Part shown: positions 2,247 to 62,717 of the stretch, one piece after another
Position numbering within the stretch: the first letter of the stretch is position 1
Layout: each line of letters starts with the position of its first letter
NCBI GenBank assembly: GCA_041650915.1
Contig: JBAZKE010000003.1
Span: forward strand, 85,226 to 149,225
Direction: 5' to 3'
Length of the DNA stretch: 64,000 nt
Origin: Patescibacteria group bacterium
GTDB taxonomy: Bacteria > Patescibacteriota > Patescibacteriia > UBA10025 > JAHIVO01
Translations under genes and position numbers: made by a program
The notes under the pieces: model-generated
Database searches by the model: none
What the model was told of the DNA's origin: nothing
The model's input: the letters and a program-made list of their open reading frames with translations, nothing else

Positions 2247-2288
2247 TAATATATCCCGTGACTGGAGCACTAGAGATTGATAATTACA

Positions 2289-2317
2289 TTGACATTTCGT
2301 TAAAAATGTGATACTAT
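2289..2317 (+). promoter_or_regulatory. Sigma70-like promoter (TTGACA, 17-nt spacer, TACTAT with a TG extension) ahead of a ~250-nt AT-rich 5' leader of the major pilin gene
   Basis: The hexamers were read directly from the sequence. A long untranslated leader is typical of pilA genes. Confidence 0.4.
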
Positions 2318-2567
2318 AGTAGTATATGGTACTGATTGAAAGCTGTTTTTATTGAAATTTAAGAAAAGTCGTGCTATTCTGTATTCATCATTACCCTGTT
2401 CGTTCTTTTTAAGTTAGTCGATATCATTAACTATCCACTGGGGAGTAAACAGCGTCCTGCGGATCGTATAGTATTAGCACGGGTCAGACGGATCCGTGAT
2501 CTGTGATACGCTATATGACAGTTTGGAGGTTGAACTGCTCTCTAGTATCAGAAAGGGGGTGGAAACT

Positions 2568-3014
2568 ATGCAGAAAAAAGGTTTTACTCTTATTGAGTTA
2601 TTGGTGGTTATCGCAATTATCGGTATCTTGGCCACCATCGGTCTCGTCGCTCTGAACGGTGCGCGTGAAAAAGCGCGTGACGCAACCCGCAAGTCTGACC
2701 TTGGCCAGATCCGGACCGGACTCGTCCTGTACTCGGATGACAACGGTGGTGCGTTCCCGAATGTAACGGGTGAAACGTACGCGGTGCTTGACAGCTACCT
2801 CGTACCGACGTACATTTCGAAGGTTCCGTCTGATCCGCAGGCAACAGGCCAGTATACGTACGTAGAGTGCAATAGTGGGCTCACAACGCCGTACTACTAC
2901 CTGTATACTGAGCTCGAATCACCAGGCACTGGCGAGATTTACTGGCTCATGGGTGATGGCACAAATGATGAGCAGTATACCGGCACACTCGGCTGTACAA
3001 TGCAACCAGACTAG
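2568..3014 (+). CDS. pilA: Type IV major pilin (PilA-like) with an N-terminal prepilin cleavage/methylation motif
   Basis: Translation begins MQKKGFTLIELLVVIAIIGIL (G-1, F+1, E+5). An RBS AAAGGGGGTGG lies upstream of the ATG at 2568. The ORF-track start at 2496 is an in-frame upstream artefact. Confidence 0.85.
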   Translation: MQKKGFTLIELLVVIAIIGILATIGLVALNGAREKARDATRKSDLGQIRTGLVLYSDDNGGAFPNVTGETYAVLDSYLVPTYISKVPSDPQATGQYTYVECNSGLTTPYYYLYTELESPGTGEIYWLMGDGTNDEQYTGTLGCTMQPD

Positions 3015-21119: not shown

Positions 21120-22439
21120 ATGGACAGGACCAAGGTAATCATTATGGGAGCCGCTGGGCGGGACTTCCATGATTTTAACGTGTACTTCCGCTCCAAGTCT
21201 GCGTACGAGGTGGTGGCCTTTACCGCTACGCAGATTCCGAACATTGAAGGCCGTTTGTACCCTCCGAGCTTGAGCGGGAAGCGCTATCCACAGGGGATTC
21301 CGATTGAGCCTGAGAGCAAGCTCACCGAGCTTATCAAAAAGCACGGCGTCGAGCAGGTTTTTCTGTCGTACTCCGATCTGCCGCACCAGGTCGTGATGAA
21401 TAAGGCGTCGGAGGTGCTGGCGGCGGGCGCAGATTTCCGGCTCCTCGGGCCGAACCACACGTTCGTAAAATCGAAGAAGCCGCTCGTGTCGGTCTGCGCA
21501 GTCCGGACGGGCTGCGGCAAGAGCCAGACGTCGCGTCGTGTCGTTGAGTACTTTAAGGAGAAGGGGAAGAAGGTCGTCGCTATCCGGCATCCGATGCCGT
21601 ACGGCGATCTCGCCAAGCAGGCAGTGCAGCGCTTCGCGAAGTATGAGGATTTTGAGAAGCATGAGTGTACGATTGAAGAGCGCGAGGAGTACGAGCCGTA
21701 TGTGGAACAGGGGCTCGTCATCTATGCGGGCGTTGACTATGAGAAAATCCTGCGAAAGGCCGAGAAGGAGGCGGATGTGATTATCTGGGACGGCGGCAAC
21801 AACGACCTGCCGTTCTACAAGCCCGACGTGCACATCGTCGTCGCGGATCCGCACCGTGCGGGCCATGAATATGGGTACCATCCCGGAGAGACGAATTTCA
21901 GGATGGCAGACGTGATCGTCATCAACAAGATTGATTCGGCCGATCCGGCGAAGGTCAAGGCGGTCGAGGAGAGCGCGAAGCGGCTCAATCCGAAAGCGGT
22001 CCTGATCAAGGCGAATGCCCCCTATACGGTTTCTGATGAATCGTTGATTCGCGGCAAGCGCGTGTTGGTCGTCGAGGACGGCCCCACGCTGACGCACGGC
22101 GAGATGCGGTACGGCGTCGGTGTGGTCGCGGCAAAAAAATTCGGGGCGAAAGAGCTTGTTGATCCGCGGCCGTTCGCCGTCGGGTCGATACAGGCGACAT
22201 TTAAGAAATTCGGCCACTTGACGGACCTTCTCCCGGCGATGGGGTACAGCGACCGGCAGGTGAAAGAGCTCGAGGAGACGATCAATGCGAGCGACGCGGA
22301 CTCCGTCGTGGTCGGCACGCCGATCGACCTCACGAGACTGCTCAAGATCAATAAGCCTGCGACCAGGATCAGCTACACCATGAAAGAAATCGGCAGCCCG
22401 ACGCTTGCCGAAGTGCTGGACAAGGCCGCGCTTGTTTAA
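21120..22439 (+). CDS. P-loop NTPase-like protein (Rossmann-like N-terminus plus a GCGKSQT Walker-A-like motif; cyclic-2,3-diphosphoglycerate-synthetase/DUF1611-like)
   Basis: The sense-strand translation has coherent motifs. The longer antisense ORF is Arg-rich junk. Confidence 0.4.
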   Translation: MDRTKVIIMGAAGRDFHDFNVYFRSKSAYEVVAFTATQIPNIEGRLYPPSLSGKRYPQGIPIEPESKLTELIKKHGVEQVFLSYSDLPHQVVMNKASEVLAAGADFRLLGPNHTFVKSKKPLVSVCAVRTGCGKSQTSRRVVEYFKEKGKKVVAIRHPMPYGDLAKQAVQRFAKYEDFEKHECTIEEREEYEPYVEQGLVIYAGVDYEKILRKAEKEADVIIWDGGNNDLPFYKPDVHIVVADPHRAGHEYGYHPGETNFRMADVIVINKIDSADPAKVKAVEESAKRLNPKAVLIKANAPYTVSDESLIRGKRVLVVEDGPTLTHGEMRYGVGVVAAKKFGAKELVDPRPFAVGSIQATFKKFGHLTDLLPAMGYSDRQVKELEETINASDADSVVVGTPIDLTRLLKINKPATRISYTMKEIGSPTLAEVLDKAALV

Positions 22440-22458
22440 ATCAAATACGTACGTTTCG

Positions 22459-22488
22459 ATGCCCCCGCCACGCAGGTGGCGGGGGCAT
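22459..22488 (+). terminator. Strong 13-bp hairpin (ATGCCCCCGCCAC-GCAG-GTGGCGGGGGCAT)
   Basis: A perfect inverted repeat directly after the stop at 22439. It has no clean T-run. Confidence 0.5.
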
Positions 22489-22492
22489 GTTA

Positions 22493-22520
22493 TTGACGTG
22501 TTTTTCCAACGGGGTACAAT
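22493..22520 (+). promoter_or_regulatory. Sigma70-like promoter (TTGACG, 16 nt, TACAAT)
   Basis: Read directly; upstream of the ArsR-type regulator. Confidence 0.4.
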
Positions 22521-22792
22521 AGAGAAGGACGACTTCCCTATAGATGCTTTGTTGGATACGCGTAGGACGCGGAAGGAGTCCACAGTCATTGTTCATTTCT
22601 GATTGGGATGATGGTATTAGGAAGTTCCGGAAAGCGCAACGCGGTCTTGTTGCCCGCAGTTCGATTTCCGTGAGGGCGGTGTCTTGCACACACTGCCCTC
22701 ATATTTTTTTTGGAATGCACGTTTTGACAGTTTTGCAAATCCGCCGTACCGTTCCAGTACTTGCTCAAGAACTCAATTTTTCATCCATCCAT

Positions 22793-23125
22793 ATGTTACT
22801 CAATAAAAAGGTTCAGGCAGAGAAGCGATGGCTGCATTCCCGCCGCGCCGATATCACGAAGCACAGCGAACTCTGCCATGTTATTTCTGACCCGACGAGG
22901 GTGAAGATTCTCATGCTGCTCAACAGGCATGGCAAACTGTGCGTCACCGATTTGGCGAACATCGTCGGTGTCAGCATCAGCGCCATTTCGCACCAGCTCG
23001 ATTTGCTCGAGCATGCGGGCGTCGTGTCGAACAAGAGAATGGGCCGGGTCGTACGCTACTATCCGCAACTGGGTGATAACGTTTTTTTGAAGATAGTTCG
23101 TTTGACTTTGGGCAAAAGTTTTTAA
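22793..23125 (+). CDS. ArsR/SmtB family transcriptional regulator
   Basis: wHTH: VISDPTRVKILMLLNRHGKLCVTDLANIVGVSISAISHQLDLLEHAGVV. The start was moved to the in-frame ATG at 22793. Confidence 0.75.
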   Translation: MLLNKKVQAEKRWLHSRRADITKHSELCHVISDPTRVKILMLLNRHGKLCVTDLANIVGVSISAISHQLDLLEHAGVVSNKRMGRVVRYYPQLGDNVFLKIVRLTLGKSF

Positions 23126-23217
23126 AATACGTCCGAATGTAAGCAGCAAGGAATAACACATATGGCACGTAATGGACCCGGATGCGAAACCTGCTAATAA
23201 CGCCATGTCCGGCCTCT

Positions 23218-23252
23218 GCATCTCGCCCCTGAAGGGGCGAGATGCATTTTTT
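23218..23252 (+). terminator. Rho-independent terminator
   Basis: GCATCTCGCCCC-TGAA-GGGGCGAGATGC followed by ATTTTTT. Confidence 0.75.
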
Positions 23253-23414
23253 CTAATAGAAGCCGTGCAGGAACATGCCGGCACAGCCATGCGCCGTTTG
23301 TACCGTGCGGGCGGGCGCCTGTTTTCGCTTGATGCCGCAGTGGCACAAAGCGGGAGAATCTGATATAATTCCATCAACAAGCAAAGCAGTGAATTCGTAA
23401 CCAACGCTGTACGA

Positions 23415-23867
23415 ATGAAAGTTTTTTTAGGCGCAGATCACGCAGGTTTCGCCCTCAAAGAGGCGCTCGAAACGTACCTCCGGCGGCATAAGTATGATGT
23501 CGTTGATCTCGGTAATACGCAATTCGAAAAAAATGACGACTACCCTGATTTTGCGTTCAAGGTCGGGGAAGCGGTAGCCCGCACGAGAGGATCGCGCGGG
23601 GTTTTGGTGTGCGGGAGCGGCGTAGGAATGGGGATCGTCGCGAATAAGGTCAGGGGCATTCGCGCAACGCACGCCAGCTCGCCGAAAATCGCGCTCGTTG
23701 CACGCAGGGACGATGACGCGAACGTCATTTCGCTCGGCGGCCGTTTCATGAGCCCGCGGGAGGCGCAGAAGGTTGTCCGGGTTTTTCTCACGGCGCCCGC
23801 GAGCACCGCGTCGAGGCACCGACGGAGATTGGACAAGGTCAAGCGGTATGAACGGAAAAAAATATGA
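23415..23867 (+). CDS. rpiB: Ribose-5-phosphate isomerase B
   Basis: RpiB/LacAB motifs GADHAGF and VLVCGSGVGM. Confidence 0.85.
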   Translation: MKVFLGADHAGFALKEALETYLRRHKYDVVDLGNTQFEKNDDYPDFAFKVGEAVARTRGSRGVLVCGSGVGMGIVANKVRGIRATHASSPKIALVARRDDDANVISLGGRFMSPREAQKVVRVFLTAPASTASRHRRRLDKVKRYERKKI

Positions 23868-24499
23868 GCGAGATCATGCCGGCGATCCTGACGGCCAGCG
23901 TGGAGGATTTGCGCAAGAAAATCAGCCAGGCGAAACCGTACGTCGGCTGGGCGCAGATTGACATCGCCGACGGTGCGTTCGTGAACAATAAAACAATCGC
24001 GGTCAAGGACATCCCGGCCGGCCTCCCCAAGATGCAGCTCGAAGCGCACCTGATGGTCATCGACCCCGCGGCAGAGCTCAGCGCGTGCAAGGCGGCCGGC
24101 ATCAAGCGGGCCATCGTTCATGTTGAGACCGTGGCGGATCCGGAAAAGATATTAGACGCAATGGAGCGGCTCGGGCTGCAGACCGGCGTCGCGATCAATC
24201 CGGAAACCCCGGTCAAGCAGCTCACGCCGTACGGTAAGCGCGTCAGCCTCATCCTCCTCATGTCAGTCCACCCGGGGTTCCAGGCGCAGTCGTTCATTCC
24301 CGCCACCCTCGGACGGATCAAGCAGGCGCGCTCGCTCGCACCGGACGCGCTGATCGAAGTGGACGGAGGCGTCAAGCGGGACAATATCGGCAGCATCGCG
24401 CGGGCCGGCGCGGATATCGCCGCCGTGGGAAGCGCACTGTATGCAAACGATGCTTTTAAAGAAAACTACGAAGCGCTCGTTGCGAGCATGACTATCTGA
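23864..24499 (+). CDS. rpe: Ribulose-phosphate 3-epimerase
   Basis: Rpe motifs (DIADG, HLMV, VDGGV). The start overlaps the rpiB stop. Confidence 0.85.
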   Translation: MSEIMPAILTASVEDLRKKISQAKPYVGWAQIDIADGAFVNNKTIAVKDIPAGLPKMQLEAHLMVIDPAAELSACKAAGIKRAIVHVETVADPEKILDAMERLGLQTGVAINPETPVKQLTPYGKRVSLILLMSVHPGFQAQSFIPATLGRIKQARSLAPDALIEVDGGVKRDNIGSIARAGADIAAVGSALYANDAFKENYEALVASMTI

Positions 24500-24504
24500 C
24501 CCAC

Positions 24505-26355
24505 ATGCAAAAAGACACGAAAACATTAGAGAAAATCGCGCGGCTCGTCCGCCGGTGGATACTCCAGTCGACGACCGAGGCAGGGTCAGGGCACCCGACG
24601 TCATCCCTGTCGGCGACTGATTTGATGGTTGCGCTCATGTTCGGCGGTGTTTTTCGGTTCGATGCCGCCAATCCCCAGCACCCCAATAACGACCGGCTTA
24701 TTTTTTCCAAGGGGCACGCTTCCCCGCTTTTTTACGCGCTCTGGGCCGCAACCGGCGCATTCCCGGCCGATGAGCTCATGACGCTCCGGAAATTCGGGAG
24801 CAGGCTCGAGGGGCACCCGACCATGGAATTCCCCTTTACGGAGGCTCCGACCGGTTCGCTCGGGCAGGGGCTGTCTGTCGGCGTCGGCATCGCGCTCAAC
24901 GGGAAGTACGTCGACAAGCTGCCGTACCGCACGTACGTGCTGCTCGGGGACAGCGAAATGGCAGAGGGGCAGGTATGGGAGGCGATACAGTCGGCCGCGC
25001 ACTACGAGCTCGATAACCTCGTCGGCATTATCGACGTCAACCGGCTCGGCCAGCGTGGCGAGACGATGTACGGCCACGACGTGAAGGCGTACGAAAAGCG
25101 CATCGCAGCGTTCGGCTGGCAGACCATCGCCATCGACGGCCACTCGGTCTCGCAGGCAGCCGAGGCGTTCAGCATGGCTTCCAAGGTGCGCAAGAAGCCG
25201 ACCATGATTATCGCGAAGACCGTGAAGGGCAAGGGGGTCCCATCCCTCGAGGATAAGGATGGCTGGCACGGCAAAGCCTTGAAGCCCGAAGAGCTCGAGC
25301 AGGCGCTTGCGGAGATCGGCAGCGTAGACGAGTCGGTCCGCGGCGCGGTCGCGGTTCCGGAGGAGGCAGAGCTCGCCAGCGCCGAGGCTGGACCGCAGCC
25401 CGCCCCAGCGTTTGATAAGCCGATCAGCACGAGAAAGGCGTACGGCAACGCGATCGTCCGAATTTTCCCGATGTTTCCGGACATGGTCGTGCTCGATGCG
25501 GAGACGGGCAACTCGACGTACGCAGAGTTGTTTAAAGAGGCGCACCCCGGCCGTTTTTTCGAAATGTACATCGCGGAGCAGAACATGGTGGGAGCCGGCA
25601 TCGGTTTCTCATCGCGCGGCAAGATTCCGTTCATTTCGACCTTCGCCGCGTTCCTCGCGCGCAGTTATGACCAGGCGCGGATGGCAAGCTATTCGCAGGC
25701 GAATATCAAAATCGTGGGGTCGCACGCGGGCGTATCCATCGGGCAGGACGGCGTGTCGCAGATGGGATTGGAGGATTTGGCGATGTTCCGGGCGCTTCAT
25801 GGCAGCGTGGTGCTGTACCCGTGCGACGGCGTTTCGACCGACAAGCTCGTCGAACAGGCGGCGAAGCATAAGGGCTTGGTGTATATCCGCACGACCAGGG
25901 CAGACACGCCGATCATTTATGACAGCAATGAGCAGTTCCCGATCGGCGGGAGCAAGACGCTGCGCTCGAGCGCACATGATGCCGTTACCGTCGTCTCCGC
26001 GGGCATCACGCTCCACGAAGCGCTGAAAGCGCATGATGAGCTGAAAAAGCAAGGCATTTCAATTCGAGTAATAGATTTGTACAGCATTAAGCCTATTGAT
26101 GAAGCAATCCTCCAAAAAGCAGGGAAAGAAACAAAAGCAATCATTACCGTGGAAGACCATTATCCGCAGGGCGGGTTGGGTGAAGCAGTGCTGAGCGCGT
26201 TAAGGCATGCGAAAGTGCATGTTGTTAAACTGGCAGTAACAAAAATGCCGAAGAGTGGGAAACCGAATGAATTGCTGGATTTTGAAAGCATTTCACAGAG
26301 TGCTATCGTGAAGGCAGTAAATGGTATCATAAATCCCCAGTATAAGAGTAATTAA
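24505..26355 (+). CDS. tkt: Transketolase (single polypeptide)
   Basis: TPP-binding GDSEMAEGQVWEA, and a pyrimidine-binding domain plus a C-terminal domain. The 3' ~300 nt are markedly AT-rich. Confidence 0.9.
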   Translation: MQKDTKTLEKIARLVRRWILQSTTEAGSGHPTSSLSATDLMVALMFGGVFRFDAANPQHPNNDRLIFSKGHASPLFYALWAATGAFPADELMTLRKFGSRLEGHPTMEFPFTEAPTGSLGQGLSVGVGIALNGKYVDKLPYRTYVLLGDSEMAEGQVWEAIQSAAHYELDNLVGIIDVNRLGQRGETMYGHDVKAYEKRIAAFGWQTIAIDGHSVSQAAEAFSMASKVRKKPTMIIAKTVKGKGVPSLEDKDGWHGKALKPEELEQALAEIGSVDESVRGAVAVPEEAELASAEAGPQPAPAFDKPISTRKAYGNAIVRIFPMFPDMVVLDAETGNSTYAELFKEAHPGRFFEMYIAEQNMVGAGIGFSSRGKIPFISTFAAFLARSYDQARMASYSQANIKIVGSHAGVSIGQDGVSQMGLEDLAMFRALHGSVVLYPCDGVSTDKLVEQAAKHKGLVYIRTTRADTPIIYDSNEQFPIGGSKTLRSSAHDAVTVVSAGITLHEALKAHDELKKQGISIRVIDLYSIKPIDEAILQKAGKETKAIITVEDHYPQGGLGEAVLSALRHAKVHVVKLAVTKMPKSGKPNELLDFESISQSAIVKAVNGIINPQYKSN

Positions 26356-26477
26356 AGAACATTACTTTTATTGCCTATATTAGTGAAGTTTAATACAAGC
26401 TATATAGGGTGATATCTATTAAGATATCACATATATAGGAATCTTGACTTTTCTATATACATAGGTATAATAGGTAT

Positions 26478-27563
26478 ATGAATAAGAACATTCAACCAAG
26501 CAGACCACCAAAGCTTCCTGCTATTCTAAATCCAAAGATTTTTTTTAATGAATTAGCAGATGCAGAAAATACTTTAGGATTGCTTGAGGGGTTACAAAAT
26601 TCATTACAAAATCCTGGGTTACTTATTGCACCACTGTCAGCTAAAGAGGCAACTGTAAGTTCAAAGATAGAGGGAACGCAAAGTACTGCTTCCGATGTAT
26701 TTATTTATGAAGCTAGTGGGGTAGAACGGAAAGTTGATACCGCAGAAGTTGCTAACTATCGGAAGGCAATCCTTTATGCTATTGAAGAGTTATCTTCTAA
26801 GAAGCCATTCTCTCTCCATCTCATTAAAAGACTTCATCAACAATTATTAACTGGTGTTCGACATAAGGGGGCGATTGGGCAATTTAGAAATAAACAGGTA
26901 TATATCGCAGAGAAGCAAAGTGATCCGATCGAGAAAGCCATTTATATCCCACCGATTCATTTATTACTGGTAGATTACATGGAGAATTACCTAAATTATT
27001 TAAATACAAGCTCTGACCGGACATTAGTACAAATGGCCGTCTCTCATTATCAGTTCGAGGCAGTTCATCCATTTGAAGATGGCAATGGGCGTATTGGACG
27101 ATTATTAATTCCATTGTTGCTTTTTCACAAATCAAAACTGACGTTGCCGATTATTTATATGAGCGGTTATTTTGAAGAAAACCGTGACCAGTATATAAGT
27201 GCTCTACATTTGGTTGATACACAAGGAGCTTATGATAAATGGATCGCTTTCTTTTGCCGGGCCGTTGCCTCACAAACTAAAGAAACGATTCAACTAATTA
27301 ATCGGATAAATAAATTACATGAAGAAGTGATGCAAAAGGTTGGAAATTTGAAGTCGCCATATATTTATAAGGTGGTCGATGCGATTTTTAAATATCCTGT
27401 CTTTACTAAGAGCAGGATTGTTCAAGAAACTAAGGCGACATATTTAACTGCAAGCAAGCTAATTGATGTATTAAAGTCACATGGGTATGTTAATGAGTTG
27501 AGTTATCGAGACGGGCGGAATAAGTTATTTGTATTTGGTCATTTACTTTCAATTATTCGTTAA
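26478..27563 (+). CDS. Fic family protein (AMPylase-type Fic domain)
   Basis: Canonical Fic motif HPFEDGNGRIGR. The gene lies in a ~1.5 kb low-GC segment with its own strong promoter (TTGACT, 16 nt, TATAAT) and an operator-like palindrome GTGATATC-N6-GATATCAC. Confidence 0.85.
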   Translation: MNKNIQPSRPPKLPAILNPKIFFNELADAENTLGLLEGLQNSLQNPGLLIAPLSAKEATVSSKIEGTQSTASDVFIYEASGVERKVDTAEVANYRKAILYAIEELSSKKPFSLHLIKRLHQQLLTGVRHKGAIGQFRNKQVYIAEKQSDPIEKAIYIPPIHLLLVDYMENYLNYLNTSSDRTLVQMAVSHYQFEAVHPFEDGNGRIGRLLIPLLLFHKSKLTLPIIYMSGYFEENRDQYISALHLVDTQGAYDKWIAFFCRAVASQTKETIQLINRINKLHEEVMQKVGNLKSPYIYKVVDAIFKYPVFTKSRIVQETKATYLTASKLIDVLKSHGYVNELSYRDGRNKLFVFGHLLSIIR

Positions 27564-27575
27564 TTTAATATTTAA

Positions 27576-28781
27576 ATGAAAACAATCGGAATTATAACCA
27601 GCGGAGGGGATTGCGGTGGACTGAATGCGGTGGTGAAGGGCGTGGCGCAGATGGCGCACCGCATGGGCGTGAAAACGTTTGCCATCCCCAACGGGTACGC
27701 GGGGTTGTATAACCTCGTCAATTTAAAAACGCTCGTTGAGCTCACGCCACAGCGCATGGATACGTTCAGCATCAACCTTGCGGGTTCAGAGGCAGGGCAT
27801 TCGCGCGTGAAGATTTCGAAAATCGAGGACCCGAAAAAGTATGAGCGCATTAAAAAAGGTTTAGAGAAATTTAAAATTGAGGGCCTCGTTATCAGCGGCG
27901 GCGATGACACGGGGAGTGTCATTATTGACCTTGAGAAGCACGGCATCAAGTGCGTGCACGCGCCCAAGACCATGGACCTTGATTTGGTGCCGTATTCGGT
28001 GGGCGGCGATTCGGCGATTGAGCGCATTGCCGAATTCGTGCGCGACCTGAAGACCACGGGCAGGACGCACAACCGCATTATGATTATCGAGGCGTTCGGC
28101 AGGTACGCAGGGCACGTGGCGTTCCGCGGCGGCATTGCCGGAGAATGCGACGCGATACTTATTCCGGAAATCCCCGTTGATTTCGCAGAACTGTACCGGC
28201 ACATGAAAAAAGTGTACACAAAGCGCATTATTGAGAGCGATATCAACGCCGGCACGTACACCATCGTTGTTGCAGAAGGCATTAAAAGCGCGTCCGGCGC
28301 TGAGCTGTTTGACGAGTCTGCGGGAGCTGATTCATTCGGGCACAAGAAGCTTGCGGGCGCGGGCAAGTACGTTGCACAGGAACTGAAGAAAATGCTCAAA
28401 GCCGATAAGGAGATCAAGGACTTCATGGTTTCGCAGGGAATGTACGTTGACGGGCAGTATGATTTGCCGGAGGTGCGCGTTATCGTGCCGTCGCATCTGG
28501 CGCGGTGCGGGTTCACCACAGCCAATGACGCGAATTTCGGCATGGAGGTCGGCGCGGGAGCGGCGTATTTGCTGCTCACCGGCGTGTCAGGCGTGACCGT
28601 GACCGGATACCGCAATGGCACGTTCTCGTACATGGATATTGCCGAGGCGATCAAGCGGCGCCTGGTTGATCTAGACCAGGTAGGGATATTCGAACAGCTC
28701 GGGTTCTGCTTTGGCCGCGTGCGCACGGAATTCAAGGCACAGCACAAAAAAGTGAGCGGCATGATTGACCGGATTTATTAA
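27576..28781 (+). CDS. pfkA: 6-phosphofructokinase (ATP- or PPi-dependent, PfkA family)
   Basis: Motifs GIITSGGDCGGLNAVVKG, GGDDTG and MIIEAFGR. Confidence 0.85.
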   Translation: MKTIGIITSGGDCGGLNAVVKGVAQMAHRMGVKTFAIPNGYAGLYNLVNLKTLVELTPQRMDTFSINLAGSEAGHSRVKISKIEDPKKYERIKKGLEKFKIEGLVISGGDDTGSVIIDLEKHGIKCVHAPKTMDLDLVPYSVGGDSAIERIAEFVRDLKTTGRTHNRIMIIEAFGRYAGHVAFRGGIAGECDAILIPEIPVDFAELYRHMKKVYTKRIIESDINAGTYTIVVAEGIKSASGAELFDESAGADSFGHKKLAGAGKYVAQELKKMLKADKEIKDFMVSQGMYVDGQYDLPEVRVIVPSHLARCGFTTANDANFGMEVGAGAAYLLLTGVSGVTVTGYRNGTFSYMDIAEAIKRRLVDLDQVGIFEQLGFCFGRVRTEFKAQHKKVSGMIDRIY

Positions 28782-28846
28782 TTATCCCGTTATAATAGCT
28801 TTATATAAAAAAATAGCAGAAAGCTAATTATTTAATCAAACTGAAT

Positions 28847-29857
28847 ATGCCAGAAAACGAACTTCACGCTATCGCGCAACAGATGGTCGCCGATTACAAA
28901 GGACTGCTTGCCGCGGACGAAAGCGCTCCCACGGCGGCAAAACGCCTGTCGTCAGTCGGTATGGAATCGACCGAGGAAAACCGCCGGCAGTACCGGAACC
29001 TTTTCCTGACCACGGAGGGAATCGAGCAGTACCTGTCCGGCGTTATATTTTTTGAAGAGACGCTCGCGCAAAAATCTGATGGCGGGGTGCTGTTTCCGGA
29101 GCTGCTCCAGCAGAAGGGGATCATCCCGGGGATCAAGGTTGATAAGGGCGCGAAAGACCTCGCGCTGTTTTCCGGCGAGAAGATCACCGAAGGGCTCGAC
29201 GGCCTCCGCGAGCGCCTGAAGGGGTACTACGAAGCGGGGTGCCGGTTCGCCAAATGGCGGTCGGTCATCAAGATCGAAGGCACGAAGCTCCCCTCCGAGA
29301 CGTGCCTGAGCGCGAATGCGTACGGGCTCGCGCAGTACGCCGCGCTCGTCCAAGAGGCGGGCATGGTGCCGGTCGTTGAGCCGGAGGTCCTGTATGACAA
29401 AGGCGGCCACGATATCAAGCGCGCCGAGCAGGTTACGGCCGAGACGCTGAAGGTAACGTTCGACGCGCTCGAACGCTTCCGGGTCGACCTCAAGGGCGTT
29501 ATCCTCAAATCGAGCATGGTGCTCACGAGCAAGGAGTATGAGCCCCAATCGGCTCCCGACGAGGTCGCGGCAGCCACCATACGCTGCTTCCAGCAGTCAA
29601 TACCGTCAGAGCTTCCCGGCATCGTTTTTCTGTCGGGCGGGCAGTCTTCCGAGCAGGCGACGGTAAACCTCAATGCGGTAAATACGATCAACCCAGGCCC
29701 ATGGAAAATCAGCTTTTCGTACGGCCGGGCGCTGCAGGGCGATTCACTGAAGGTATGGGCGGGCAAGCCGGAGAACGTCGCGGCTGCGCAGGCTGAGTTT
29801 GTGAAGCGCATGAAAGCGGTTACCGCGGCAAATCGCGGCGAGTATCGGGCTGCGTAG
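28847..29857 (+). CDS. fba: Fructose-bisphosphate aldolase, class I
   Basis: Class I aldolase N-terminus KGLLAADESAPTAAKR, and a Schiff-base Lys region. Confidence 0.8.
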   Translation: MPENELHAIAQQMVADYKGLLAADESAPTAAKRLSSVGMESTEENRRQYRNLFLTTEGIEQYLSGVIFFEETLAQKSDGGVLFPELLQQKGIIPGIKVDKGAKDLALFSGEKITEGLDGLRERLKGYYEAGCRFAKWRSVIKIEGTKLPSETCLSANAYGLAQYAALVQEAGMVPVVEPEVLYDKGGHDIKRAEQVTAETLKVTFDALERFRVDLKGVILKSSMVLTSKEYEPQSAPDEVAAATIRCFQQSIPSELPGIVFLSGGQSSEQATVNLNAVNTINPGPWKISFSYGRALQGDSLKVWAGKPENVAAAQAEFVKRMKAVTAANRGEYRAA

Positions 29858-29886
29858 TTTCGGTTTTCGTTCAAAAAGCGTGTATC

Positions 29887-29918
29887 CAGGCGCCCGCCTG
29901 ACGGCGGGCGCCTGTTTG
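29887..29918. terminator. Bidirectional terminator between convergent genes
   Basis: 12-bp perfect stem CAGGCGCCCGCC-TGAC-GGCGGGCGCCTG followed by TTTGG. Confidence 0.65.
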
Positions 29919-29951
29919 GCGCTGTTTGTTATAAGCGCACCTTTTTGGATA

Positions 29952-30425
29952 TTATGCGAAAAACAGCGAAAAAATCAGCTCATCGGTGCCATTGTGGTAA
30001 TGGTTCCTGAGGATTGCTTCCTGCTGCATGCCCTTATTGAGGAAGAATTCCTTGATTTCGCGGTTATCCGCGTGGATCATCGAAAAAATTTTACGCAGCC
30101 GAAAACCGCGCTGCTTATAAAAATAGTCAGCTTCGGCAATGACCTGGTCAAACAGCATTTCCTTGACGTACTCCGTGTCAGCCGGTGCGGCATCGAGGGC
30201 CAGCCGGCATAGTTCCGCAACGCCGTGCGAAAGCAATCCCTCGGTTTTCCAGCTGACTAAGCCTACCACCCGGCCATGTTCTTCCGCGATGCGGTAGTGC
30301 TGGTATGCGCACTCGTTCCTGAACGTTTTCTCCGCGATTGCGAGTGACGGGAAGGAAAATTTTTTTGCTAAGAGATCCGAAACCTGCTGGCTATCCTGGC
30401 GCGAAGCCCTCCGTATTGTCGCCAT
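29952..30425 (-). CDS. GNAT family N-acetyltransferase
   Basis: 157 aa. GNAT fold motifs (RVVGLVSW..., and C-terminal NREIKEFFLNKGMQQEAIL.. HYHNG). Confidence 0.65.
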   Translation of the reverse strand: MATIRRASRQDSQQVSDLLAKKFSFPSLAIAEKTFRNECAYQHYRIAEEHGRVVGLVSWKTEGLLSHGVAELCRLALDAAPADTEYVKEMLFDQVIAEADYFYKQRGFRLRKIFSMIHADNREIKEFFLNKGMQQEAILRNHYHNGTDELIFSLFFA

Positions 30426-30581
30426 GTAAAATGATTTCTGTTATTTTTTTTGAATGTAGTATCAATTATAGCAGATCGGCAGAAAAAATCAAGAGCAGGG
30501 CATGAGCAGAATCATTTTTTTGCTTGCCGCTTGCAGAAAATTCCATCAAGAATAAAAAAAAGAGGCGGCACGTGGACCGTA

Positions 30582-30631
30582 CGCCAAGAAAAACGGCACT
30601 CCTGGAGTTGGCGGAGTGCCGTCTGTTTTTT
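30582..30631 (-). terminator. Hairpin terminator downstream of the minus-strand OMP-like gene
   Basis: CGGCACTCC..GGAGTGCCG stem with T-runs on both strands. Confidence 0.55.
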
Positions 30632-30648
30632 TGTGGGAGCTCTCATCC

Positions 30649-31968
30649 CTAGAACCATGCGGTCGTAGTGATTGCGCCTCCCTCGAATCCTGTTGTGCCG
30701 AATGCCCCCGTCGCTTCAAACCGGACGTTTCCGAGCCGTCCGCCGCAGCTGAGCATATGCTGCTCGTGCCCGGGGCTCTCGAGCTTTCGCTCCATGAAAT
30801 CGAACGTGACCTCTTCCTGGTAGCTGTAGGCGTATCCCAGGAATGGCTGGGATCTGAATCGGGTCCAGGTGTAGTACACCGCGCCTTTGAAGCTCTTACT
30901 CACGAGATAGTCCGTGGGCTCGAACTCGAAGTACGCTGCGTACCAGCCGATCTTTCCGTGCTCCTGGGTATGGATATCCTGCACCCTGATGTCGAACGAC
31001 TGGTTGTTTACCACCCTCGTCGGCATGAGCATCGAACGGAAACCGGCCCGGAACAGCATGTTGAGCACGGCATCGGGCATGTCATGTCCGTAGAACGAGC
31101 CCATTGCGTAGATGTTCTTGCTCCCCGGTTTAATCGTCGCCTTGGCGTACAGCGACGGCGACCACGAGGTTGAGTCGTCCGATGACGGCAACCCGATGGC
31201 GATTGTCCACGCCCTCGTCTCCCCGCTCCACTCGAGCGAGTCAATGCGGTGGGCGAAGCCAGCGCCGATGCGCCACGGCCCGGCGGGCACGAGGCAGCTC
31301 ACCATGAGTTTGTCTCTGAAGCGGTGCTCTTGGCCGGGCTCCTGGGCGTAGTGCCGCGAGAATCCCGCGTACAAGTACCGGTTCGTTTCGATCGGCTTCT
31401 GGACCGGCGTGCCGTCCGGGGCGAAACCAGTGCAGTATGCCGTGTTCGTCATCGTCCGCTCCGCCATGGCAAAGTAGATTTCCGGCGATTGCCCGTAGAA
31501 GAGCTCCTCGCCGTATTCGATGCGCCAGGTTCGCGACGGCCGGTACTCGAGGTACATGCCGAGAGCCTGTGTCGCCGCGCCGTTGTCACTGTCGACCCAC
31601 GAGTTGTACACGAGCCGGAGCTTCACTTTTCGCGACATGATCGCGGTGCCTCCGAATGAATTCTCGGATTTGTTCGTGCCGAGGCCGGTGAGCTCTACGT
31701 TCCGGTAGTCGAACCCCGTCGTACGAAACGTGAAGAGGGTATATGGCCCCGACGAGAGGGAAAGGTTGGTGCCGTACGTACCGTACGTACCGCGGTTGTC
31801 GTTACCGAGGAATTTATCGAGCCAGCCGAACTCGCCGGTCAGGCGAAAATCAGTAATGGCCCGATAGCTCGCTTCAGCGCTTCCCTGGCCATGCGGCTGG
31901 GCGCACACTGCCGATGCTGATGCAACAAGCAGAACGCACAGCACTGCGATTGTTTTCTGTCTGTACAT
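30649..31968 (-). CDS. Secreted beta-rich protein with a signal peptide and C-terminal ...TAWF (outer-membrane beta-barrel-like)
   Basis: RBS AGGAGGG, then a signal peptide MYRQKTIAVLCVLLVASASAVCAQ. The mature part is full of alternating aromatic/polar beta-strand patterns and Gly/Tyr. The C-terminal residue is Phe. Confidence 0.5.
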   Translation of the reverse strand: MYRQKTIAVLCVLLVASASAVCAQPHGQGSAEASYRAITDFRLTGEFGWLDKFLGNDNRGTYGTYGTNLSLSSGPYTLFTFRTTGFDYRNVELTGLGTNKSENSFGGTAIMSRKVKLRLVYNSWVDSDNGAATQALGMYLEYRPSRTWRIEYGEELFYGQSPEIYFAMAERTMTNTAYCTGFAPDGTPVQKPIETNRYLYAGFSRHYAQEPGQEHRFRDKLMVSCLVPAGPWRIGAGFAHRIDSLEWSGETRAWTIAIGLPSSDDSTSWSPSLYAKATIKPGSKNIYAMGSFYGHDMPDAVLNMLFRAGFRSMLMPTRVVNNQSFDIRVQDIHTQEHGKIGWYAAYFEFEPTDYLVSKSFKGAVYYTWTRFRSQPFLGYAYSYQEEVTFDFMERKLESPGHEQHMLSCGGRLGNVRFEATGAFGTTGFEGGAITTTAWF

Positions 31969-35867: not shown

Positions 35868-36461
35868 ATGTTGGACGAATTTGAAAGAAACGGGAGAGTA
35901 TATAAACCAGGGGATATGCTCCTGTTTGAAGAGTCTAATGGACCGGGATTCGCGAACTCACTCTGGCTCTCAAGGATAACGTCGATTGAGGATCGTGGAT
36001 CCGGGTTGGTTGTGGCTGATCTTGGCGTTGGCGGGGAATATTGCTTGACGGGGCATTTCTGTATCGCCCACAACTATGCAGAACATGAAACCTGGCGCTG
36101 CGGTGCAAGTCATTGCTGTCCACTCTACGTGACCATCGTTGATGACAATTTCAAGTGGGGGGTCTCACCTGAACAACTTGAGTACGGCATGCTCATAGTG
36201 TACAGAGCGGCGGAAGATTATTGGCCTACGCCGATCCGCATTGGGAAAATACAGCGATATGACCATCCTCATGAATTGAGCTATCGGACTCATGGGGAGA
36301 TCGAGTTTTCCCTTCTCAATACAGATCGTATCCTCCGGTATCTGCCTGAGGAGGAACATAAGTGGCAGTTGTGGCTGTCGGGTCGCGACGTTTTCCCAAG
36401 GAAGGAGATACAACTTGCGCTGTTGCACAAAAAGGAAAACAGTGCTCCAAAGAACAAATAG
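35868..36461 (+). CDS. Hypothetical protein (197 aa) in a low-GC islet
   Basis: An RBS AGGAGG precedes the start. A hairpin terminator GGGTGTCCA..TGGACACCC plus T-run lies downstream. Confidence 0.5.
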   Translation: MLDEFERNGRVYKPGDMLLFEESNGPGFANSLWLSRITSIEDRGSGLVVADLGVGGEYCLTGHFCIAHNYAEHETWRCGASHCCPLYVTIVDDNFKWGVSPEQLEYGMLIVYRAAEDYWPTPIRIGKIQRYDHPHELSYRTHGEIEFSLLNTDRILRYLPEEEHKWQLWLSGRDVFPRKEIQLALLHKKENSAPKNK

Positions 36462-36543
36462 CACTGTACATTTTCCGACATAGGGTGTCCAATTATTTAT
36501 CAACAATGATTTATGGACACCCTTTTCTTTTTCCAAAAAACTA

Positions 36544-36572
36544 TTGCGCGAATTTTTAAAATGTGCTATAAT
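36544..36572 (+). promoter_or_regulatory. Extended -10 promoter (TTGCGC, 17 nt, TGcTATAAT)
   Basis: Read directly; upstream of the basic peptide gene. Confidence 0.4.
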
Positions 36573-36667
36573 GCCATTAACGTAATAAAGGTTTTTATTT
36601 TTTCTCTTTTATATTTTTGGAGTGATACGCTAGCAAACTTTACACTTTTCGAAAGGGGGTGAAAGTC

Positions 36668-36796
36668 ATGGCGAAGAAAAAGAAAGCAGCAAAGAAGCGG
36701 AAGCCGGTGAGGAAAGTGGCAAAACGGAGGAAGCCGGCAAAAAGGAGAAAGGTTGCCAAGAAGAAAGTAGTTCGCAGAAAGAAACGGAGAAAGTAG
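36668..36796 (+). CDS. 42-aa extremely Lys/Arg-rich peptide (MAKKKKAAKKRKPVRKVAKRRKPAKRRKVAKKKVVRRKKRRK)
   Basis: An RBS AAAGGGGGTG lies 6 nt before the ATG. It is below the ORF-track cutoff and was translated by hand. Nucleic-acid-binding/histone-H1-like composition. Confidence 0.45.
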   Translation: MAKKKKAAKKRKPVRKVAKRRKPAKRRKVAKKKVVRRKKRRK

Positions 36797-36945
36797 CATC
36801 GGAGTTACTTTAGTATACGGGCACATTGCCTATATAACCTTAAGAGCGGCACACTATGGCCGCTTTTAAGGTTTATAAGGCTTGATACGTCGGCTGTAGT
36901 ATACTAAAGAGGCGGTGCATCGGGCGCCGCTATCGGTAAAAACGT

Positions 36946-37761
36946 ATGGAATATATCTACCTGGGGGTGCTTTTTATCTCAGCCGGCCTGCTCGCAATAG
37001 CGTATTATTCGAGCGTTCCCGGCAGGGCTGAGCTCCAGGACCGCCTTCCGAATAAACCAACGAAACGCGCAATCATTCCGTCAGCCATGCTCATCCTGCT
37101 CCTCGGTGCGGGAATATGGTACATGGGTGCGGTATCAGTCGGGGCATTCCATCCCTCGAAGGTGCTGCTCGTAATTTTTGCGCTCCTTGTTTTTGAATCA
37201 TTTTTTATTCTCTCCCTTCGCTGGTTTCGTTCGAACACGTTTGCCGTGCTGGCGTGCTCCGCGGCGACCTGCCTCCTGTTCTGGGCATACTTTACGGTGC
37301 AGGTGTTTTTTATTTTCAACGGCATCGTGATCATCGCAACACTCGGTGCGGCGACCCTGCTCGTGCGGCTCGGGTACCTCCGTACGCGCCTGCTGTTTAT
37401 CGTCACTGTCCTATGGGTTGCATACGACGTCATGCTCGTCCGGTACGTGCTTCCGAACGTTACCGTGCCAGCTGACTCGCCAAGCCCCTCATTTTTATTT
37501 CCTGCCGTCACAGTCGGGCACGTGAGCCTCGGGAGCGGCGATTTCATGTTTCTATCCCTGTTCACGCTCGTGCTCCTCCGGGATTTTGGCAGGCTCTCGG
37601 CAGCTGTCCACGTCATCCTGCAGGGTACCCTCTATTTCATCACGGGCCTTGCGGTTCCCGAAGCGGGGTTTTTGCTGCCGTTTTTAGTTATCATGGCTCC
37701 CGCTTTTTTCCTCGTGTACGGTACGTCATACTACAGTAGCAGGGCGAAGCGCATATCATAA
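36946..37761 (+). CDS. Polytopic membrane protein with presenilin/SPP-like motifs (YD ... GSGD ... APA); candidate A22-type intramembrane aspartyl protease
   Basis: About 8 transmembrane segments. VAYDVMLV, then ~38 aa later LGSGDFMFL, then ~55 aa later VIMAPAFFL. The spacing matches the YD/GxGD/PAL layout. Confidence 0.35.
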   Translation: MEYIYLGVLFISAGLLAIAYYSSVPGRAELQDRLPNKPTKRAIIPSAMLILLLGAGIWYMGAVSVGAFHPSKVLLVIFALLVFESFFILSLRWFRSNTFAVLACSAATCLLFWAYFTVQVFFIFNGIVIIATLGAATLLVRLGYLRTRLLFIVTVLWVAYDVMLVRYVLPNVTVPADSPSPSFLFPAVTVGHVSLGSGDFMFLSLFTLVLLRDFGRLSAAVHVILQGTLYFITGLAVPEAGFLLPFLVIMAPAFFLVYGTSYYSSRAKRIS

Positions 37762-41982: not shown

Positions 41983-42549
41983 ATGGCAATGCCCGAAGGC
42001 AGCAAGCGAATTCAAACAGTCAGCGGTATCGTCTTGCTTATTGTCGTTGTTATGCTCATCGGGGTTTACTATCTCTGGCTCGTCGCCCGTGAAGATGAAC
42101 CCGTGATGAATACGACGCTCGTGCAGGTGCCGCAGCGTGAGGCGGCGGATACAGGGGCGGAAGCCGAAGCAGCAGGGCAGGCGACGCTCTACAGCAGTTT
42201 GGAGCATGGATTTGGTGTCGAGTATCCCGTCGGCTGGGACATCGAAACCCTGCAAACGGGCGACGGCGATTCGAGCATTTCTACGGTCCGCTTTTCCGGT
42301 GGCGACGAAACGGTTGATATCATCATTACAGATCAGGGCATGGAGGGCATTATCGCAAATTCAATTTCGATTGATGCGGAGTCGGAAATAGCAGTCAGCG
42401 GCCAGCGTGCCCGTCTCCTCGAAGGGGGAAACATGAAGGATGGGTCCCCGCTTAATATGGTTTTGCTTGTCAATGGCGATACGCTGTATGCGATTACCGG
42501 ATTAGGAGATAGTTTCAATAGTATCGTGGAGCATTTTTCTTTGCAGTAA
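41983..42549 (+). CDS. Hypothetical membrane-anchored protein inserted between fusA and tuf
   Basis: One N-terminal transmembrane helix, then an acidic extracytoplasmic domain. No recognisable family. Confidence 0.5.
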   Translation: MAMPEGSKRIQTVSGIVLLIVVVMLIGVYYLWLVAREDEPVMNTTLVQVPQREAADTGAEAEAAGQATLYSSLEHGFGVEYPVGWDIETLQTGDGDSSISTVRFSGGDETVDIIITDQGMEGIIANSISIDAESEIAVSGQRARLLEGGNMKDGSPLNMVLLVNGDTLYAITGLGDSFNSIVEHFSLQ

Positions 42550-42831
42550 ATATCCACATTTCTGGGGATAATCAAGTTGATTATAGAGGGCTGGTAGTTA
42601 TTTTTTGCTAATATTAGCTGAAAGTATACTAGTGAATAGATCTGACGGAATATGCATCCGACCCTCGGCTTGCTAAAAAATGCCATCGCTGCTATAATGC
42701 ACATTGCTATTTTAAAAGAAGGGTCTATACGTATTGACAACCGATAGCCCTTCGCGTATCCTTACGGGATACTACATGCTTTTATCAATTATTTAAGACT
42801 TATTTAAGACTATTAAGTACGAGTCACTACT

Positions 42832-44016
42832 ATGACTGCTAAATTTGAAAGAACAAAGACACACGTAAATGTTGGTACCATTGGCCACGTTGACCACGGT
42901 AAAACAACCCTTACCGCAGCAATACTCAAGGTGCTGAAAGATAAAGGTTTCTCTGCCCAGGATAAAACAGTGGATCAGATCGACAATGCCCCAGAGGAAA
43001 AAGCGCGTGGCATTACCATTGCGACCGCGCACGTCGAATACGAAACTGAAAAGCGGCACTACGCGCACATCGACTGCCCGGGGCACGCTGATTACGTTAA
43101 AAATATGATTACCGGCGCAGCTCAGATGGACGGCGCCATTCTTGTCGTTTCGGCCGCTGACGGCCCGATGCCGCAGACACGCGAGCATATCCTGCTCGCA
43201 AACCAGGTTGGCGTGAAGAATATCATCGTATTCCTCAATAAAGTTGATATGGTTGATGACAAGGAGTTGATTGACCTCGTTGAAGTTGAGGTGCGCGACT
43301 TGCTTAAGAAGTACGAGTACCCGGGCGATACCACCCCCGTTATCAAGGGTTCTGCATTGCGGGCGATTGAGGGTGACGAGAAGGCGGTTGCGTCAATCAT
43401 GGAGCTCATGAAAGCGATTGATGAGAATATCCCCGAGCCGGAGCGCGATGTTACGAAGCCTTTCCTCATGCCGGTGGAAGATATTTTTTCGATTGAAGGC
43501 AGGGGTACCGTCGTGACCGGAAAAATCGAGCGCGGCGTCATCAAGATTAATGAGGAAGTTGAAATTGTCGGCATTAAAGATACTTCCAAGACCGTCGTGA
43601 CTGGAATAGAAATGTTTAACAAGCAGCTTGATGAAGGGCGCGCGGGCGATAATGCAGGACTGCTCATTCGCGGCACCAAAAAGGAAGAGGTAGAGCGGGG
43701 GCAGGTTATTGCAAAGCCAGGCACTGTTACGCCGCATACTGAGTTTGAAGCGCAGATATACATTCTCAATAAAGAAGAGGGCGGCCGCCATACCCCGTTT
43801 TTTAAGGGGTACAAGCCGCAATTCTATATCCGTACGACTGACGTAACCGGCGAGGTGCAGCTTCCAGAAAATACCGAGATGATCATGCCGGGAGACGAGG
43901 TGACGCTCAAGGTCAAGCTGATTGTGCCGATTGCGCTCGAAGAGCAGCAGCGTTTCGCTATCCGGGAAGGCGGGCATACCGTCGGGGCAGGCGTTATTAC
44001 TAAAATAATTAAATAG
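42832..44016 (+). CDS. tuf: Elongation factor Tu
   Basis: [18 protein letters not shown] and NKVD. Confidence 0.95.
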
Positions 44017-62012: not shown

Positions 62013-62230
62013 GGGTGTTGCCGTTCGAATAAAGTGTATACATCTTAACGCTCACATAGGATAAAAGCAAGCCTCCGGCTGTGCAGGTTCTATGCACATA
62101 TTTTCCACGTTTTTTTACTCATCACCCGCGCTTCCGCGCCTTGACAAATGCCCCCAATCGTACTACGATGACCTGCCAAACGTGCAAGTATGCAGATTAA
62201 AATAAACACTGAAACTGGAGGTAAAGCAGA

Positions 62231-62497: not shown

Positions 62498-62590
62498 TAC
62501 GCACTGCGTACCTGTTTCCAGGCCTGCTCGTTATTCAGACACTATGCTGAATTTTGAGCAGGCTTTTCTTTTTTATGAGAGGCACATAGC

Positions 62591-62618
62591 TTGACAACAG
62601 ACTGATATTTGGTAGTAT
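62591..62618 (+). promoter_or_regulatory. Sigma70-like promoter (TTGACA, 16 nt, TAGTAT) driving the tRNA-like/GIY-YIG/tRNA-Lys array
   Basis: Read directly. Confidence 0.45.
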
Positions 62619-62648
62619 GCAATGTAGTTTCGTTATATGTTTGTGCGC

Positions 62649-62708: not shown

Positions 62709-62717
62709 TCAGAGTAT

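Follow-up and report, generated by a model that had tools for sequence, protein, structure and literature searches.

A low-GC segment carrying a SoFic-type Fic gene has probably replaced the 3′ end of tkt in a Patescibacteria genome

We analyzed a 64,000-nucleotide stretch of contig JBAZKE010000003.1 (assembly GCA_041650915.1; hereafter the window, to which all coordinates refer unless another locus is named). Its host is a Patescibacteria (Candidate Phyla Radiation, CPR) genome of about 54% GC with an rpiB-rpe-tkt-pfk-fba operon. Within this operon, an islet of markedly lower GC content begins inside the transketolase gene tkt (24505-26355, + strand, 616 aa), continues through a gene for a SoFic-type Fic protein (26478-27563, + strand, 361 aa), and ends just before the resident downstream gene pfk (27576-28781, + strand). 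We consider it probable that the 3′ end of tkt and the short spacer between tkt and pfk gave way to a segment of about 1.55 kb that carries the Fic gene and stems from a lower-GC Patescibacterium.

Composition of the islet

In 200-nt windows, the GC content of tkt is 0.58-0.66 up to about position 25900 and 0.48 at 26000, after which it stays at 0.29-0.40 over 26200-27599 and is back at 0.585 at 27600. Of the 64 1-kb bins, 26001-27000 has the lowest GC (0.379; background about 0.54). The islet as a whole (26031-27575) has a GC of 0.364, whereas all other windows of 1545 nt are at 0.539 ± 0.030, with a minimum of 0.456 (z = −5.9). In tkt, GC at third codon positions (GC3) drops from 0.80 (codons 1-507) to 0.41 (codons 508-616); the Fic gene has a GC3 of 0.30 and pfk one of 0.70. 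The GC3 likelihood change point falls after tkt codon 507 (nt 26026; 2-lnL range, codons 502-515), and nucleotide change points were found at 26033 (range 26018-26058) and 27598 (range 27583-27606). The first-pass annotation, a reading of the letters alone, had placed a drop from about 60% GC near 26030, roughly 100 codons before the tkt stop, in agreement with these change points. It had also described low GC through the Fic gene with a return at pfk; this is right as to composition, but the right boundary had to be corrected. GC3 in pfk is restored to 0.8 by codon ~11, and the first 60 nt of pfk, including its AT-rich first ~7 codons, are 87% identical at the nucleotide level to those of L006, the closest relative found. 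Because the AT-rich start of pfk is common to both, a right junction within pfk is ruled out, and the true junction lies in the 12 nt that separate the Fic stop from the pfk ATG (27564-27575, + strand; TTTAATATTTAA).

The low GC might be explained without any transfer, as local composition of the lineage, such as AT-rich DNA of accessory or regulatory function held under selection. Milder dips do occur in the window: the 1-kb bins 2001-3000, 36001-37000, 42001-43000, and 62001-64000 have GC values of 0.456-0.469 (vs. ~0.54), and pfk has a local GC3 dip to 0.40-0.45 at codons ~81-110 (27816-27900), across which the nearest relative is unchanged at the resolution used. The tkt tails of relatives are also slightly lower in GC3 than their heads. 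That drop, however, is 0.00-0.16 in seven relatives, as opposed to 0.38 in the window, where the step occurs at synonymous sites within a single open reading frame (ORF). Moreover, relatives that lack the Fic gene lack the step, and the DNA takes on another phylogenetic affinity at the step itself, as described below. Nor are Fic genes AT-rich everywhere: across 53 homologue loci, the GC of the Fic gene was close to that of its flanks (0.518 vs. 0.527). As homologues elsewhere thus carry host-like GC, the AT-richness seen here points to recent arrival and not to a property of the family. We find an origin in local composition barely credible.

Ancestry of the tkt 3′ end

The nearest relative of the tkt DNA switches at the GC3 breakpoint. 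Over codons 430-507, the nearest DNA is that of L006 (Patescibacteria STD1_130, GC 0.537), which matches at 0.75 (0.56 at third positions); the corresponding values for L002, a Patescibacteria metagenome-assembled genome (MAG; GCA_043808365.1, GC 0.48), are 0.66 and 0.36. Over codons 508-575, L002 rises to 0.85 (0.66 at third positions) and L006 is steady at 0.74. With the islet as a blastn query, L002 was the top match (82.5% over 257 nt, E = 8e-60), followed by L118, L119, and L120 (78-79%), L001 (76%), and L006 (75%). In the protein, we refer to the Tkt type of L002, L001, and L006 as group B. When informative residues were scored as group-B-like versus P0122-like, the group-B-like share rose from 27 of 56 before codon 507 to 24 of 25 after it (Fisher p = 1.6e-5). 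The first-pass suggestion of recombination inside tkt with a chimeric C-terminus is therefore borne out by the switch from L006 to L002.

The change points fall in a stretch of tkt (codons ~505-518; 26017-26058, + strand; ...EALKAHDELKKQG...) that is near-identical at the DNA level in the window and in the group B genes of L002, L001, and L006, and that reads GAA GCG CTG AAA GCG CAT GAT GAG CTG AAA AAG CAA GGC at the switch. A homologous crossover could be expected to resolve in a stretch conserved in this way. Upstream of it, the resident high-GC part of the gene (codons 1-507; 24505-26025, + strand) keeps the N-terminal and pyrimidine-binding Pfam domains intact; downstream, the presumably foreign tail (codons 508-616 plus the stop; 26026-26355, + strand) continues in frame and supplies most of the Transketolase_C domain. 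In the chimeric Tkt, all three Pfam domains are retained; the protein scores 888 bits over residues 2-609 on the NCBIfam transketolase equivalog NF004559 (cut-off 488) and is predicted to be an intact enzyme.

The operon has further irregularities of ancestry. Tkt residues 1-380 are closest to P0122 and L003 (77%), and residues 394-503 lean toward group B (13 of 17 informative sites, vs. 14 of 39 before; p = 0.008). The Rpe of the window is 73% identical to that of L003 and 35% identical to that of L006, and the aldolase is of class I in the window and of class II in L003. These observations suggest that the operon is mosaic beyond the islet, with an older, compositionally ameliorated breakpoint near tkt codon 380.

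The tkt-pfk slot in related genomes

We compared the slot between tkt and pfk in a sample of four syntenic relatives. In L003 (Logan ERR10503087, GC 0.42; Tkt head 76%, Pfk 82%), the two genes are separated by 17 nt and there is no Fic gene. In L006, whose Pfk is 93% identical in amino acids and 84-87% in nucleotides, the tkt tail has normal GC and the slot holds a 273-aa ORF of GC 0.30-0.36 followed by a 187-aa HD/DUF4202 gene. In L007 (GC 0.44; Pfk 82%), 1.3 kb lie between tkt and pfk with no ORF of at least 90 aa. The first-pass annotation had named the same composition and arrangement in related genomes as the finding that would speak against transfer; what we found instead were slots that are empty or otherwise filled, with no GC step. 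The horizontal acquisition that it proposed is supported by the deviant composition of the islet, the empty site in L003, the other contents in L006 and L007, and the switch in nearest DNA relative. It is suggestive, on the basis of the four syntenic relatives, that the slot is variable across the clade.

Several other features of these loci deserve mention. The 1.3-kb region of L007 (L007:915-2232, GC 0.33-0.48) has no Pfam match and could represent cargo in decay or else some non-coding element. In L120 (5849-9541), and likewise in L121, rpiB-rpe-tkt is followed by a patch of GC 0.25-0.31 with four small unannotated ORFs, then by a different Fic gene with a helix-turn-helix (HTH; 352 aa), and then by DUF4202. 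This Fic-HTH gene, 2 kb downstream of tkt, was considered as a counterpart of the window Fic gene and rejected, since the two proteins are 26% identical and belong to different subfamilies. Unannotated ORFs also lie downstream of tkt in L001. In L006, the first ~32 nt of pfk (6001-6034; ATGAAAACAATCGGCATTATTACGAG...) recur with 2-3 mismatches at 5383-5416. This copy has the low-GC 273-aa ORF on one side and the DUF4202/HD gene on the other, and precedes the genuine start of pfk by 600 nt; it looks like the scar of an earlier cargo exchange, the mirror image of the tkt tail in the window. Apart from the HD/DUF4202 gene, nothing in the cargo of the relatives scored above threshold with Pfam or PADLOC.

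Agreement of a second assembly

The window comes from a 273-kb MAG contig with a MEGAHIT-style name (k141_1347418; ENA ERZ27247363), and the left junction of the islet is in conserved tkt sequence, where reads of a low-GC organism might have been joined erroneously to those of the host. In the Logan assembly of SRR8542065, two contigs match window positions 21786-27095 and 27066-31781 exactly and together span both islet junctions, base for base. A second assembler thus yields the same junctions, which excludes an assembler artifact. The Logan assembly does break inside the Fic gene, where the contigs overlap by only 30 nt (27066-27095) at the catalytic-loop codons; as this sequence is conserved among Fic genes, other Fic genes in the sample may have made the graph branch here. 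A chimera produced by mis-assembly would also have had to switch genomes twice in frame over 1.5 kb, and to do so the second time precisely 12 nt short of the pfk ATG, at a joint where the Fic gene and pfk share no sequence. In addition, the stretch shared with the nearest low-GC tkt is mismatched every few bases and is too short for a k = 141 graph. We judge mis-assembly to be highly improbable.

The Fic protein

The first-pass gene calls for tkt, the Fic gene, and pfk proved right, each being an ORF with the expected Pfam domains (PFK in pfk; Fic_N, E = 6.1e-22, and Fic, E = 6.9e-19, in the Fic protein). By sequence and by predicted fold, the Fic protein belongs with SoFic. It matches the PADLOC SoFic model PDLC03963 with E = 1.3e-104 (348.5 bits), its residues 6-360 aligning to positions 7-358 of the 361-position profile, and phmmer gave full-length alignments to the SoFic structures 3EQX, 3ZCN, and 9TC4 and to 9VJC. 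An AlphaFold2 model (predicted local distance difference test, pLDDT, 77.8; predicted template modeling score, pTM, 0.79) had the SoFic structures 3EQX and 3ZCN as its best Foldseek matches (template modeling scores of 0.75-0.79). We classify the predicted protein as a full-length SoFic-type class II Fic, a divergent member from an uncultured lineage.

Several elements expected of such a protein are in place. The catalytic loop, H197-PFEDGNGRIG-R208 (27066-27101, + strand; HPFEDGNGRIGR), aligns with SoFic HPFIDGNGRTGR and contains the motif HxFx(D/E)GNGRxxR of Fic/Fido AMP-transferases; H197, P198, F199, D201, G202, N203, G204, R205, G207, and R208 are invariant in 13 homologues, and E200 and I206 are at least 90% conserved among them. 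The inhibitory-helix motif (S/T)xxxE(G/N) is present within Pfam Fic_N as S61-S-K-I-E65-G66 (26658-26675, + strand), aligned with SSEIEN of SoFic and SSRIEN of 9VJC; S61, E65, and G66 are invariant in the same 13 homologues, and the model sets the motif in a helix of residues 55-65. The model also shows a C-terminal winged HTH at residues ~296-353 (27363-27536, + strand), which aligns with the C-terminal domain of SoFic and is predicted with pLDDT > 90 (helices 296-305, 311-318, and 322-334; strands 308-310, 338-345, and 348-353). A long helix that it places at residues 19-40 may or may not correspond to the N-terminal dimerization helix of SoFic (L28-L50).

A search for a partner or antitoxin gene in the islet found no free-standing ORF of at least 20 aa, the small ORFs present all overlapping the Fic gene, and with the Fic stop 12 nt from pfk there is no room for one. 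With its inhibitory helix in cis, as in class II, the protein is predicted to need no antitoxin. Of the AMPylation- or toxin-type module that the first-pass annotation had proposed, the AMPylation-type Fic gene is retained, but not a two-gene toxin-antitoxin system; the check that it recommended turned up the inhibitory helix (S61-x3-E65-G66) and no antitoxin partner.

Promoter and inverted repeats

The AT-rich spacer between tkt and the Fic gene (26356-26477, + strand; GC ~0.29-0.31) has no DNA similarity to any fetched locus, no Rfam match, and no terminator, and no RNA element or terminator was found elsewhere in the islet. It carries a sigma-70-type promoter, TTGACT-16 nt-TATAAT (26444-26471, + strand), which fits 11 of 12 consensus positions and so upholds the strong promoter that had been ascribed to the Fic gene. 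The Fic ATG starts 6 nt past the −10 box, which suggests that the mRNA has no leader or almost none. Upstream of the closest homologues (L032/L033 and L034), AATCTTGAC is kept, as is the distance of 6 nt from the −10 box to the ATG, and a −35 box AATCTTGA(C/T) is common to the window, L032/L033 (58%), and L034 (Zixibacteria, 61%), in unrelated genomic contexts. Because this layout is kept where the context differs, the promoter appears to travel with the gene. In the window (26466-26480) and in those of its closest homologues whose upstream DNA was fetched (L032:4975-5003 and L034:4975-5003), exactly 6 nt separate the −10 hexamer from the start codon, implying that a leaderless transcript is probably conserved in this Fic subfamily.

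Two inverted repeats lie at this promoter. The first, GTGATATCT-ATTA-AGATATCAC (26409-26430), ends 14 nt upstream of the −35 box. It corresponds to what had been described as an 8-bp operator-like palindrome; the palindrome exists and its arms are 9 bp, but it is not significant alone and is only a candidate operator. The second, TATATAGGAA-N8-TTTCTATATA (26432-26459), is 90% complementary and straddles the −35 hexamer. The same layout, CATATAGG-N12-CCTATATG around TTGACT, is found in the L040 homologue (45% identical), and inverted repeats surround the −35 box in L032 and L034 as well. On this comparison, the −35-straddling repeat is at least as good an operator candidate as the palindrome. 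Among 68 distinct upstream regions of homologues, 34% have a perfect inverted repeat of 8 bp or longer, and the longest arm averages 6.9, compared with 5.0 in shuffles. Inverted repeats at the promoter thus appear, from some 70 homologue loci, to be a trait of the family. This fits the published behavior of SoFic, whose dimers bind the 100 bp of AT-rich DNA upstream of the SoFic start codon specifically and in a dimer-dependent manner (bioRxiv 10.64898/2026.07.09.737422). By analogy, it is reasonable to suppose that the window Fic would regulate its own expression through one or both repeats.

Search for a donor

No mobile-element machinery accompanies the islet. The Fic gene is its sole ORF, there is no recombinase or tRNA target in it, and around it we found no flanking direct or inverted repeats beyond chance; it is not an integrase-, transposase-, or tRNA-associated mobile element. 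When the 113-aa Tkt tail was searched by itself at the protein level, the matches were all short fragments, none above 72% identity. Scanning metagenomes with an alignment of 13 Fic sequences brought up 80 loci, at most 55% identical and none adjoining tkt or pfk, and the genomic context of eight Tkt or Fic homologues showed no adjacency of tkt and a SoFic gene. Fic homologues on plasmids (at most 36% identity) and prophages (at most 30%) are uninformative as to the origin of the window copy.

A number of these results weigh against the replacement of the tkt end by one segment with a SoFic-type gene. No donor was found: the closest Fic proteins are 61-62% identical, the best match to the tkt tail is 82-85% at the nucleotide level, and neither the 80 metagenomic loci nor L032-L034 have the Fic gene beside tkt or pfk. 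The tail and the Fic gene differ in GC3 (0.41 vs. 0.30), so two separate events are possible. The second assembly may share reads with the first, which leaves room for a chimeric read population. As for the cargo, the 9-bp palindrome taken alone is within chance, a perfect repeat of at least 8 bp arising in 166 of 2000 shuffles of the spacer (p ~ 0.08). The protein is ~28% identical to SoFic and scores 177.4 bits on the NCBIfam SoFic equivalog NF046030, far below its cut-off of 550 bits; we accordingly call it SoFic-type and not a SoFic orthologue, and its target and biological role may differ from those of SoFic.

The most serious competitor is a history of two independent events, in which gene conversion of the tkt tail and a separate illegitimate insertion of the Fic gene abut by coincidence or because the site is a hotspot. 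Besides the difference in GC3, this history would suit a Fic family whose members never adjoin tkt in 83 other loci, a slot that varies independently in L006, L007, and L120, and a tkt gene that may have recombined repeatedly, given the possible older breakpoint near codon 380. Low GC nevertheless runs unbroken from 26026 to 27575, across tail and Fic gene, with no return to host composition, which supports one event. The tkt genes of low-GC relatives are GC-richer than their loci (in L001, 0.453 vs. 0.403), so one donor could give both GC3 values, and a single event is more parsimonious than two that abut. We regard two events as unlikely, though well within consideration, and infer a single transfer from a donor in which the Fic gene followed tkt.

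Comparison with known systems

Among the closest known systems is SoFic (MloA) of Shewanella oneidensis (SO_4266; 3EQX, 3ZCN). It has the length of the window Fic and the same three-part architecture, in which a helix at the N-terminus is followed by a Fic domain that carries the inhibitory motif in cis and then by a winged helix at the C-terminus. The two share the catalytic loop HPFxDGNGRxGR, and the AT-rich upstream region of the window Fic, with its inverted repeats, is what would be expected of a protein that binds its own promoter as SoFic does. They differ in setting, the window Fic belonging to a CPR host and being wedged into a sugar-phosphate operon 12 nt from pfk. The best sequence match in the PDB was 9VJC (E = 4.8e-33, residues 7-358), probably the structure of EcSofic from the EcSofic-AS1 system of E. 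coli H397. EcSofic has the same domain order, inhibitory motif, and catalytic loop, but is described with a 47-aa AS1 antitoxin encoded downstream (in the account given by PMC12249575), whereas the window Fic has no AS1-like small ORF. Class I systems such as VbhT/VbhA (FicT/FicA) have in common with it the Fic fold, the AMP-transfer chemistry, and inhibition by a glutamate-bearing helix (PMC3667792); in them the helix comes from a separate antitoxin gene, whereas in the window it is formed by residues 61-66 of the same polypeptide, with no partner gene. In class II proteins, of which SoFic is one, the inhibitory helix is part of the same polypeptide (PMC3667792). CccR of Yersinia pseudotuberculosis, a Fic protein with a winged helix that autoregulates its own promoter (as cited in bioRxiv 10.64898/2026.07.09.737422), resembles the window Fic by description; the putative operator in the window is proposed from inverted repeats.

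What such a protein would do in its host can be approached through these counterparts. SoFic is presented as an anti-phage system that consists of one protein and acts through toxicity (as outlined in PMC12249575), and it AMPylates EF-Tu's switch I region, thereby blocking translation (bioRxiv 10.64898/2026.07.09.737422). The islet might have been acquired as proposed here but carry, in place of a phage-defense toxin, a reversible regulator of translation, through AMPylation and deAMPylation of EF-Tu, and of transcription; with its promoter directly upstream, it might influence the expression of pfk and fba. SoFic itself combines constitutive deAMPylation, dimer-dependent AMPylation, and promoter binding, and a dual regulatory role has been proposed for it (bioRxiv 10.64898/2026.07.09.737422). 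The window Fic misses the NCBIfam SoFic equivalog cut-off, and no terminator separates it from pfk across the gap of only 12 nt. On the other hand, the PADLOC defense model matches over the full length of the protein (E = 1e-104), the family is mobile and patchy with homologues on plasmids and prophages, Mrr-like genes adjoin the homologue in L034, and arrival as a foreign cassette fits accessory defense better than core regulation. A purely regulatory role therefore seems to us possible but doubtful.

The arrangement of the locus also recalls hotspots at which cargo is exchanged between flanking core genes, as known from the genomics of E. coli, Pseudomonas, and pneumococci. Both have a fixed slot between core genes, cargo that differs from one relative to the next, and exchanged tracts that reach into the flanking core gene. 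The tkt-pfk slot differs in lying within an operon of a reduced CPR genome and in having no integrase, tRNA, or repeat boundary.

Genomic neighborhood

Upstream of tkt lie rpiB (23415-23867, + strand) and rpe (23864-24499, + strand), with an ArsR-type regulator gene on the + strand in the same neighborhood. Downstream of pfk, a class I aldolase gene (28847-29857, + strand) is followed on the − strand by a 157-aa ORF (29952-30425) with no Pfam or PADLOC match. The latter is 83% conserved in L003, in the same place downstream of the aldolase. In L120, a minus-strand 157-aa ORF upstream of rpiB recalls the one that follows fba in the window.

Discussion

Of the histories considered, the replacement of the tkt 3′ end and the short tkt-pfk spacer by one segment remains the one we favor. 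The donor fragment would have consisted of the 3′ end of a group B tkt followed by the Fic cassette, from a lower-GC Patescibacterium. Its left end would have entered by homologous crossover in the conserved tkt stretch at 26017-26058, yielding an in-frame Tkt whose last ~110 codons are of group B. The right joint, in the 12 nt before the pfk ATG, would be illegitimate (homology-facilitated) or else the product of a second crossover too short to see. Homology-facilitated illegitimate recombination is known from transformation in Acinetobacter and pneumococci.

The cargo would be a single cassette complete in itself, in which a SoFic-type class II Fic gene is preceded by inverted repeats and a near-consensus promoter. 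By analogy with SoFic, its product may be a dimeric AMP-transferase restrained by its own N-terminal inhibitory helix. For example on phage infection, it could AMPylate a host target (EF-Tu in the published case) and stop translation. Its C-terminal winged helix may bind the promoter repeats and so repress its own gene.

The contents of the slot in relatives invite a broader, tentative proposal, which we put forward as a conjecture more likely wrong than right. In this Patescibacteria clade, the region just downstream of tkt (the tkt-pfk gap in the syntenic subgroup) may act as a slot whose cargo is turned over by recombination: species would exchange small AT-rich accessory or defense cassettes there with no help from mobile-element machinery. 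The exchange would be anchored by homology in the core genes on either side, DNA uptake would probably be the route, and mosaic tkt tails and pfk 5′ scars would be left behind. If this is true, an autoregulated SoFic promoter would now stand 1.1 kb upstream of pfk-fba with no terminator between them, and the lower half of the operon could be coupled to the regulator of a defense gene.

CPR genomes are small and largely free of mobile elements, and these bacteria are thought to rely on DNA uptake. The islet is a case, resolved to the base pair, of such a genome gaining a defense-type gene by recombination anchored in an essential metabolic gene, with a chimeric enzyme left behind that is predicted to be functional. 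The family is known and so is the kind of process; this is a clean but ordinary horizontal transfer, and it leaves current understanding unchanged. What it adds is a SoFic-type protein that is divergent and comes from an uncultured lineage, and a comparison across homologues of the inverted repeats at the promoters of this family.

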